Origin: Podospora anserina
Taxonomy: Eukaryota
Direction of reading: 5' to 3'
Length of the DNA stretch: 64,000 nt
NCBI GenBank assembly: GCA_017654855.1
Contig: CM030338.1
Coordinates: 930,001 to 994,000 of the forward strand
The position numbers and the translations under genes were made by a program. Of this stretch, positions 35,145 through 37,053 are shown in pieces; the stretch's first letter is position 1, and every line of letters begins with the position of its first letter. The notes beneath the pieces were generated by a model, which worked only from the letters and a program-made list of their open reading frames with translations, searched no databases and was not told where the DNA came from.

Positions 35145-35520
35145 TCAACAACCAAACAACCTCTTCTTGCTGGGTCACACAATCCCAAACTATCCTCAAC
35201 ACTTAGTTTCGTAGCTTACTCAGAATAATGCATAATGACATCATGAAACAATTCAAACCGGACTTGTATCAGTGAAAGAAGAAATAGTTATCATCAATTT
35301 TTTAGAGTGGTGTGTCGTAAAAGAGAGGAAACAAAATCAGAGAGATAAGATATATAGGATATATAAATAACCTTTCCCACCACCACAACCACAACCACCA
35401 CCACCGCAAAACAACCCAGTACCTAACCTTGACAACGTGTAGCCATCCATATATTTCAGGGGGTAAAAAAGAAAAAAAGAAAACAGCCCCAAACGCTCAT
35501 AACAAAAACAGCAAAACCCC

Positions 35521-35521
<1 letters not shown>

Positions 35522-35560
<39 letters not shown>
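35522..35560. repeat. Poly(A)39 tract between convergent SEC15 and HAP5
   Basis: 39 consecutive A residues. Confidence 0.95.
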
Positions 35561-35567
<7 letters not shown>

Positions 35568-36176
35568 CCACCATAACTACAACAAGCTCATTTTTTATGT
35601 GCGTGTGTGCAATGTGTGTGCGTGTGTGACATGATTCAAAAACAGATTCCTCCCCCCGTTAACCAACATCTCAACTGGTTCAAACCTAGAGGGAAGACGT
35701 CTCCCCTTCGTGAACATGATCATGTATTCCGTTTACTGTCCCAACTTCCCAAACTGGTCTCCCACATTATCCATCAGATTCTGGCTGCTGCTCAACGGCT
35801 CGTTCTTAATGACGGGAGATTGCGCCTGTGGTTGCTGCTGTTGCTGTTGCAAATGGTACTGCGGATGTTACAGAGCATAGGGGTACATGTTGTGATACTC
35901 CTGTGCCGTCCCAGCACCACCCAAGCCGCTTTGATGGTATTGTTGAGCCCCAGAGCAGTGTCCCTGATGAGGAGGATGAGAGTATTGACTTTGATGGCTG
36001 TTGCTGCTCGGTCCCGACCCGACCGCCCACTGCTGCCCTCCCGTTGTCGACATGGTATGATGGACCTGATCGGCAAGAAGCTGAGCGTACTTGGCATTCT
36101 CTCCGAGGTCCTGCTGCTGGCTTCCTTCCACCGCCACACCTTCTTCTTGCTCTTCCCTCTTCAGCTCAGGCGACTT

Positions 36177-37053
36177 CTAAGCGCTCTGCTGTGTGAGATT
36201 CACTTGTTAGCCATGAGTTGGGTCATGTTAGGATGGGAAATCAAAAACACACCTGTTGCTGTTGAATAGTACCGTAGTACATCTCATCGGCGTTGTACAT
36301 TTGGGCCTGCGGTTGACCATATGATGGCGCGCCAGGCATAACACCGCCTGGGTACATGGTCTGAGGATTGCGGTAGTCGCCCTCTTGGGCAATCTGATGA
36401 ACGCCGTAGTCGGCGGGGTTCATGGTGTGCTGACCGCCGGGGCCGGGACCAACACCAGGCACCTGGGGGGGTTGTTGGTTGGCAGCGGCGGCAGCAGCAG
36501 CAGCCTGGTTGGAAGTCCGCTTAGCGTGGGAGGAGGCTTCCTCGCGGGGAACGATGTCGATGAGGAAGTCAAACATGTCGGACTTGGCAAGGGCGGAGGC
36601 AATATCGGAGCGTTGGAGGGTGCGGCGCTTGTTCTCCTCAGCATGAATCCAGGCACGCATGGTGAGCTCAGTGATGAAGATGTCGCAACCCTTGGCGAAG
36701 AGAATGGGGGCTTCGGCTGAGATCATCTTGACTTCGGGATCGGCCTTCATCACCTTCTTGATGCGGGCAAGGGGTAATTGGTGTTGTTTGTAGTCATGCT
36801 GGTCCGTCTCGAGGTGGTTGATGGTTTGCTGCCAGTAGGCCGTCAGGATGTCTTTGTAAGACCCCGTGAGGCCTTGGTGGACATTCGCCCATGTCCCGGT
36901 GTAGAGCTCTGATGGAGCAAAGCCTTGCTGTGAAAGATGCACACTGGCACCATAGTGGCCGCCCTTGCTGAGATCATATTGTGGTTGTTGCTGTGGGGGC
37001 TGGGGATGTTGATGGCTGCCGTGAGGGGCTGAGGAGGGATTTTGGGGATCCAT
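36177..37053 (-). CDS. HAP5: CCAAT-binding complex subunit Hap5/HapE (NF-YC)
   Basis: [45 protein letters not shown]...[12 protein letters not shown]. Intron 36189-36252 (GTGTGT...CTAAC...CACAG). Last exon CAG AGC GCT TAG. Confidence 0.95.

Follow-up and report, generated by a model that had tools for sequence, protein, structure and literature searches.

A conserved TAG stop codon in HAP5 of Podospora anserina and related fungi is followed by a putative coding tail with SUMO-type motifs

The HAP5 gene of Podospora anserina carries, behind its TAG stop codon, 146 further codons in frame which, judged by their codon usage, by in-frame conservation in relatives and by a roughly 20-fold enrichment of the motif psi-K-x-E, are a real and conserved coding tail and not a chance open reading frame (ORF). 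The gene lies on the reverse strand of a stretch of 64,000 nucleotides (assembly GCA_017654855.1, contig CM030338.1, positions 930,001 to 994,000), hereafter called the window, and the coordinates given below and in Table 1 are those of this stretch. A hidden extension of the protein had originally been predicted here from the letters of the window, and the comparisons reported below bear it out as a genuine Hap5 tail. Translation of this tail is probably conditional, being opened at the TAG by RNA editing or by alternative splicing. Adenosine-to-inosine (A-to-I) editing in the sexual stage would be the best explanation, with a probability of about one half.

By homology, the gene is that of the histone-fold subunit of the CCAAT-binding complex known as HAP5, NF-YC, HapE or AAB-1. 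Its exon 1 product is 97% identical to a histone-fold protein of Cercophora samala, an orthologue scoring above the Pfam cut-offs for PF00808 and PF00125. Among its 6,449 matches, the top named proteins are HAP5, HapE and AAB-1-like proteins with PF00808 and PF00125, and those other than C. samala are about 64-81% identical. In fungi, the CCAAT-binding complex, with Hap5 as one of its core subunits, controls genes of respiration, iron, redox and development.

Past the intron, the HAP5 frame meets the TAG after two codons, remains open for 102 codons as far as a first TAA, and continues for another 44 codons up to a final TAA (35733-35735). Apart from the acceptor, this course had been read correctly in the original prediction, as had the two motifs LKRE and IKNE and a polyglutamine run with mixed CAA and CAG codons. 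Openness alone is weak evidence here, because five of the six frames of the extension stretch are open for more than 100 codons. Codon usage was therefore scored with a log-likelihood model contrasting 12 long ORFs of the window with its ORF-poor DNA. The frame of the extension reached 0.143 per codon, the highest value of the six frames, compared with 0.141 +/- 0.045 for 100 real coding windows and with a mean of -0.067 (95th percentile 0.026) for non-coding windows in all frames; past the final TAA, the score was -0.05. The G+C contents at codon positions 1, 2 and 3 were 0.655, 0.385 and 0.601 in the extension and 0.644, 0.431 and 0.655 in exon 1. An antisense gene was also considered, 230 codons being open on the forward strand over the extension and the intron (35577-36269), and was ruled out by codon scores of -0.015 to -0.123; this open frame appears to be a by-product of composition.

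Analysis of related loci extended these observations beyond the window. A metagenome scan with the HAP5 core yielded 80 loci, 56 of which match the last 70 residues of exon 1, and 20 of these 56 displayed a Sordariomycetidae-type end, that is ..QQ followed by the intron, a hexamer and TAG. Four near-duplicates (L005, L016, L018 and L020) were dropped, and the 16 distinct metagenome loci that were left were joined by the window to form a set of 17, from which the incomplete loci L009, L027 and L029 were excluded. Taxonomy of the metagenome loci was taken from the nearest named core protein alone; for the 17-locus set, the nearest such proteins came from Chaetomium/Thermothelomyces, Cladorrhinum, Podospora, Lasiosphaeria, Schizothecium, Phialemonium and Coniochaeta. 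As outgroup, 20 distinct loci were used whose tails are of Leotiomycete, Dothideomycete or Hypocreales type, and its ORF lengths were taken from the 14 loci with more than 300 nt of downstream sequence.

The stop codon was TAG in all 17 Sordariomycetidae-type loci and in only 5 of the 20 outgroup loci, the others having TAA (11) or TGA (4) (Fisher p = 3e-6). Of the three frames past the stop, that of HAP5 was the longest in 14 of the 17 loci (binomial p = 5e-5; the exceptions are L007, L011 and L037), as against 4 of the 14 outgroup loci. Its median open length was 61 codons, whereas the other two frames had medians of 13 and 17 codons and the post-stop frame of the outgroup one of 14; individual tails ranged from 19 to 148 codons. 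Frame 0 also had the best codon score in 16 of the 17 loci, with frame means of 0.188, 0.064 and -0.014. By its codon statistics, the Hap5 tail is a translated and selected sequence in loci of the Sordariomycetidae type. Past the tail's own stop, the next in-frame segment was at least 30 codons long in ten loci and scored -0.03 or less in eight of them, the other two being L011 (0.09) and the window (0.17). In L011 (1063-2990), this segment comprises 594 more open codons past a 47-codon tail and its TAG, and it may be a neighbouring gene sharing the frame.

The intron after ..QQ is common to Pezizomycotina, while exon 2 varies by clade. In the Hypocreales type (Hypocreales/Glomerellales-type loci such as L008, L010 and L046), exon 2 likewise begins with GCGCC and codes for A-P-M-S-S-E-E-F-E before its stop; in the Leotiomycete type (loci such as L014, L033 and L041) it codes for a tail of about 45 residues ending in ..ERDYEVG. 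The combination of a two-codon exon with a hidden tail was confined to the Sordariomycetidae-type loci.

The motif [VILMF]KxE was found 15 times in 1,290 tail residues, where 0.73 occurrences are expected from per-sequence shuffles (none of 2,000 reached 15). It was present in 11 of the 17 tails, and counts by frame were 15, 0 and 0. This psi-K-x-E element is the sole recurrent one of the tails and is often flanked by proline, the window having both LKRE and P-V-I-K-N-E-P. For comparison, the synergy-control motif is defined as P-x(0-3)-[IV]-K-x-E-x(0-3)-P. Tails are rich in A/P/G/E/S in most lineages, and in Q/H/Y/G only in the lineage of the window and C. samala. The activation-like domain that had been proposed for the extension consequently finds no support beyond the window lineage, and it is the SUMO-type motif that recurs elsewhere instead. 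We infer that the tail is a disordered segment with a SUMO-acceptor consensus, with a putative role in SUMO-dependent modulation of the CCAAT complex. The long form of Hap5 would then bring to this complex a SUMO-dependent, probably dampening, control or an altered stability.

The closest annotated relative shows the tail in frame with HAP5. In the 401-residue model of C. samala, ..QQQQ is joined directly to a tail homologous to that of the window, with no internal stop. The two tails share 57-61% identity, and a single frame is kept across nine small internal gaps; by hand count from the alignment, 60 of the 102 residues before the first TAA and 22 of the 44 after it are identical. Further homologous in-frame tails were paired between L001 and C. 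globosum, between L037 and Staphylotrichum, and between Mycothermus and Remersonia. As a practical matter for annotation, HAP5 has been modelled inconsistently in Sordariales, with short, intron-retaining and at least eight long forms among the listed orthologues.

Sequence searches did not reach beyond such close relationships. A profile of the window and C. samala tails, run against proteins of at least 259 residues in a collection of 5.8 billion proteins, returned the C. samala model alone. A search of 1.84 billion representatives with the tail returned nothing but one 768-residue protein, with 27% identity in eight stretches, which was set aside as a low-complexity match. No homologue was found among 384 pattern matches in a metagenome scan with the tail profile, and the sole match of the C. 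globosum tail used as query was itself. Pfam gave a single match on the tail, SUIM_assoc at 14.7 bits, under its cut-off of 34.1 bits. Because no homologue was found past the closest relative in these searches, the primary sequence of the tail is taken to turn over fast; as far as such comparisons reach, what is conserved across Sordariales and neighbouring orders is the feature and not the sequence.

The state of the gate in the commonest transcript was read from assembled RNA contigs. Runs X1, X2, X7 and X8 were compared with the window; X1, X7 and X8 represent three studies, and X2 gave no matching contig. The RNA nature of the runs is a guessed label, and it is the spliced joint that marks the contigs of X1, X7 and X8 as derived from mRNA. 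Such contigs keep the dominant variant only, minor edited or alternatively spliced forms being invisible in them. All three contigs span 36185 to 35574 with no gap and no differing letter, with TAG and TAA unchanged, in line with the expectation that the mRNA reaches across the extension. As they are continuous through it, the extension is therefore 3' untranslated region (3'UTR) of the dominant mRNA, and both stops are real. According to the spliced contigs of the three studies, the dominant protein has 269 residues and ends in ..QQQQSA, in agreement with the ..QQSA, ..QQNA or ..QQGA ends of most named Sordariales orthologues.

The same contigs corrected the original prediction in one point. 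Its acceptor was 3 nt off, exon 2 beginning with AGC at 36185 and not with the upstream CAG, so that only 9 nt instead of 12 nt separate the TAG from the acceptor in use. The intron ends in a tandem NAGNAG acceptor (cag/cag, 36186-36190, reverse strand), the first AG of which is about 18 nt from a ctaac branch-point candidate, yet the second AG is used. Use of the first AG would add one Gln, which corresponds to the QSA end of the original prediction.

The nonamer RGCGCY-TAG is kept at the DNA level in all 17 loci, and the RNA of the spliced form is predicted to fold into a small hairpin with the A of UAG in its loop, this A being unpaired with a probability of at least 0.95 in 13 of the 17 single-sequence folds. 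With the register fixed, 70.6% of 119 hairpin cells can pair, compared with 37-64% when the partner is slid by one to three columns. Changes on both sides occurred in nine hairpin cells, a number reached by 2 of 500 shuffles, and the covariation was 0.253, where shuffles gave 0.187 and a single one of 500 attained the observed value.

The flanks of the TAG resemble those of fungal A-to-I editing sites, for which the reported preferences are C/U at -2, U at -1, A/G at +1, G at +2 and A/G at +3 and +4 (PMC9600606). Pyrimidine at -2, U at -1 and G at +1 were found in all 17 loci, G at +2 in 14, purine at +3 in 13 and purine at +4 in 16; all six preferred flanks were present in nine loci and five of six in the window. 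A TAG within a hairpin, a bias for TAG and a disordered, poorly conserved extension are described as hallmarks of a conserved stop-loss site in PMC13123824, where they serve to argue that the site in DBF2 is ancient. The same paper reports A-to-I editing for C. globosum, S. macrospora and N. crassa.

On the editing model, the dominant mRNA would be spliced as ..cagcag/AGC GCT TAG and translation would end after ..QQSA, the tail remaining 3'UTR. In the sexual stage, the tRNA deaminase Tad2/Tad3 would convert UAG to UGG (Trp), the target A lying in the loop of a conserved hairpin and in a Y-U-A-G-G/A-R-R context. The edited product of the window would have 372 residues (269 + Trp + 102), ended by a lineage-specific TAA.

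Several observations weigh against this model or against parts of the case made for it. A strict psi-K-x-E is missing from 6 of the 17 tails. The hairpin register was picked by eye from single folds, 29% of its cells are unpaired in the fixed register, and RNAalifold returned no consensus structure for the ungapped 27-nt alignment; because of the choice by eye and of the RNAalifold result, the conserved hairpin around the TAG is rated as having moderate support. At +2, the window carries an A, a depleted nucleotide. The TAG is unedited in all three RNA contigs, although this is weak evidence, since a contig shows the prevailing variant alone and no life stage is known for these runs. In ten of the 17 loci (L001, L002, L007, L012, L013, L017, L019, L022, L023 and L037), the hexamer directly follows an acceptor triplet that also reads TAG; in the spliced contig of L002, the acceptor is upstream of this extra TAG, and the protein ends in ..QQ with two in-frame TAGs 6 nt apart. 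The upstream TAG being kept in frame, two edits would therefore be needed there. The editing-type features, namely the TAG, the pyrimidine before it and the purines after it, equally suit a 3' splice site, and for at least three species (C. samala, C. globosum and C. fimeti) long models were annotated in which a distal acceptor leads to the tail.

A less probable gate is an alternative 3' splice site, which had been named next to editing in the original prediction; these two routes are still the best candidates. The TAG would then serve as distal acceptor (cag/cag/AGCGCTTAG/A), 9 nt past the usual one, Ser-Ala-stop would be removed in frame and ..QQQQ would be joined to the tail in a product of 369 residues (267 + 102), with the hairpin modulating the choice of acceptor. 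In all 17 loci, the TAG has the form YAG with a purine behind it and stands at a constant 6 nt past the proximal acceptor, and in the window it is about 30 nt from the ctaac candidate. Tandem acceptors are in use, as shown by the second cag of the window and by the AG ahead of the upstream TAG in L002, and a distal acceptor would remove both stops in the ten loci with a TAG acceptor triplet. The three long models just named all use such an acceptor, but they are predictions. A distal junction was absent from the three contigs of the window and from L002 and L011, the two spliced contigs of the metagenome, although minor forms drop out of contigs, and no tail-bearing protein of at least 259 residues other than the C. 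samala model was found in the 5.8-billion-protein collection. Moreover, a distal acceptor alone would leave the hairpin and the editing-type flanks unexplained. Editing and splicing are not separable by any sequence feature, and both may operate together. A wider and more doubtful proposal, offered tentatively, is that one conserved hairpin TAG acts at once as stop codon, tRNA-deaminase target and reserve 3' acceptor, and gates a fast-evolving SUMO-acceptor 'synergy-control' tail of Hap5 across Sordariomycetidae. The CCAAT complex would thereby be switched to a SUMO-regulated form in sexual development or under another specific condition.

If a near-cognate tRNA read through the UAG, perhaps aided by the hairpin, a small and constant fraction of long Hap5 would be made in all stages. 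The unbroken frame across the stop and the coding nature of the tail speak for such a route, and Freitag and co-workers reportedly described in 2012 cryptic peroxisomal targeting signals in fungal C-terminal extensions reached by alternative splicing or read-through. In yeast, however, G or A after the stop favours efficient termination, while leakiness goes with contexts such as C at +4 or with a stimulatory structure downstream. Here, the stop is followed by G in 14 loci and by A in the other 3, and it is located within a hairpin loop, not upstream of a structure. Read-through also gives no reason for TAG in every one of the 17 loci, and the second in-frame TAG of some transcripts (L002) would square its inefficiency; we consider this route very improbable.

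Equally improbable, and largely refuted by the patterns described above, is the view that no long isoform exists today, the frame being either a decaying relic or open by chance in a G+C-rich 3'UTR, with over-predicted long models: the many open frames of the stretch, the TAA inside the window tail, the stop of the dominant mRNA at TAG and the missing homologues outside the closest relative would suit it, but not the gene-like, frame-specific codon usage that ends at the tail's stop, the confinement of psi-K-x-E to one frame or the TAG bias, nor the short and unbiased post-stop frames of the outgroup, and a relic could not stay open and motif-rich across Chaetomium-, Podospora-, Schizothecium-, Coniochaeta- and Phialemonium-like loci.

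Coming back to the tail favoured here as a conditionally opened coding sequence, the TAA within it had been seen originally either as a second gate or as a recent nonsense change. A second gate is improbable: Arg takes this position in C. samala, fungal editing of UAA is described as giving UGA, which is still a stop (PMC11156358), and eight of the nine other loci with a readable next segment lose the coding signal at their tail stop. The nonsense change fares better, given the Arg of C. samala and the 44 codons behind the TAA, which are still coding-like and about as conserved as the first part. The TAA is thus best read as a recent, lineage-specific nonsense change that would cut off the last 44 codons, including P-x-I-K-x-E-P. 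Introns removing the TAA were also sought. A 13-nt GT..AG candidate is too short, and a 59-nt candidate over the TAA has a weak donor and breaks the frame kept in C. samala, with no corresponding joint in the contigs.

Stop-loss or cryptic C-terminal extensions are an already known kind of feature in fungi, and the HAP5 case is one for which no earlier report was found. The literature on editing, stop-loss and alternative splicing contained no report of a tail for HAP5, aab-1 or NCU00116, within a search that did not extend to supplementary site lists, which may contain the site. Like the cryptic peroxisomal signals mentioned above, the Hap5 tail would place a functional motif in a C-terminal extension absent from the main product, by a route that can vary among species; unlike them, it carries SUMO-type motifs in a long disordered tail and not a peroxisomal targeting signal type 1 (PTS1) tripeptide on metabolic enzymes. 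Metazoan NF-YC also has C-terminal splice isoforms, which come from a choice of exons inside a Q-rich activation domain. The family is the same and isoform variety is likewise confined to the part C-terminal of the histone fold, but no stop-codon gate exists there and the metazoan sequences are unrelated to the fungal tails.

The nearest parallels come from editing. WC-1 of Sordaria macrospora has a 131-residue stop-loss extension with peptide evidence (PMC6794485). Both it and Hap5 are transcription-factor subunits of Sordariales with a UAG stop and an extension of more than 100 residues hidden in the 3'UTR, which would be produced in Hap5, as in WC-1, upon recoding of the stop alone. Editing and peptide were observed for WC-1, whereas the Hap5 tail is known here from sequence; moreover, the Hap5 stop is only two codons past an intron and could be a splice acceptor, and the recurrent element of its tail is a SUMO-type motif and not a predicted domain. 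For FgDBF2 of Fusarium graminearum, a 24-residue extension acting as a destabilising tail is reported, with editing signals for DBF2 in eight species (PMC13123824). As in DBF2 of Sordariomycetes, the HAP5 loci combine a hairpin TAG, a clade-wide TAG bias and a disordered extension conserved only among close relatives. In contrast to DBF2, the tails of Hap5 reach a median length of 61 codons and carry an enriched motif, and editing signals for HAP5 are so far none. By analogy with the DBF2 work, the Hap5 tail could also be a destabilising one, but the motif enrichment argues for a specific function over a generic degron.

Mutants of aab-1 (NCU00116) in N. crassa are reported to show reduced conidiation (PMC6468284). 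Should the proposed gate operate, the CCAAT complex would exist in two forms, one of them with SUMO-type sites, and CCAAT-dependent transcription would be rewired without a second gene. It is debated, according to PMC13123824 and an exchange of 2026, if the stop-loss extensions of fungi have a function or are only tolerated, and a tail conserved across an order would provide a testable case.

Table 1. Features of the HAP5 locus in the window, and annotated long HAP5 models of other fungi
Feature	Positions	Strand	Basis or remarks
HAP5/NF-YC exon 1 coding sequence, 267 codons, ATG at 37053	36253..37053	-	translation; histone-fold core and Q/P/Y-rich C-terminal region
Intron, 67 nt, GT..AG, tandem cag/cag end, second AG used	36186..36252	-	joint 36185 to 36253, one contig each of X1, X7 and X8
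Exon 2 start, AGC GCT TAG = Ser-Ala-stop; TAG at 36177-36179	36177..36185	-	stop of the short protein and YAG/A candidate distal acceptor
Small G+C-rich hairpin, predicted, A of UAG (36178) in apical loop	36169..36185	-	5' arm = hexamer before TAG; 3' arm = nt +2 to +8
3'UTR of the dominant mRNA, whole extension inside	35574..36176	-	contigs X1, X7 and X8
Extension part 1, putative tail, 102 codons, LKRE at 36153-36164	35871..36176	-	HAP5 frame; codon score 0.129, best of six frames
TAA inside the extension	35868..35870	-	unchanged in RNA contigs of three studies; C. samala has Arg
Extension part 2, putative tail, 44 codons, P-V-I-K-N-E-P, IKNE at 35799-35810	35736..35867	-	codon score about 0.175; behind the TAA
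Other annotated long HAP5 models			C. globosum 339 aa; C. fimeti 395 aa; Remersonia 403 aa; Mycothermus 422 aa
Other annotated long HAP5 models			Staphylotrichum longicolle 298 aa; Cercophora sp. LCS_1 364 aa; two Cytospora species

Some minor features of the locus deserve mention. The 3'UTR of HAP5 adjoins a T-run of about 55 nt (35500-35573, masked as repeat), at which the RNA contigs end. A CA/CG-rich microsatellite lies near the 3' end of the gene, at about 35600-35640 on the reverse strand. Within exon 1, the alanine repeat of ..NQ-Ala(n)-NQQ.. (36469-36500, reverse strand) has eight residues in the window and seven in the Logan-derived protein P0002, which is otherwise 100% identical over the aligned core; the length of this GCT/GCC repeat thus differs between strains or assemblies.

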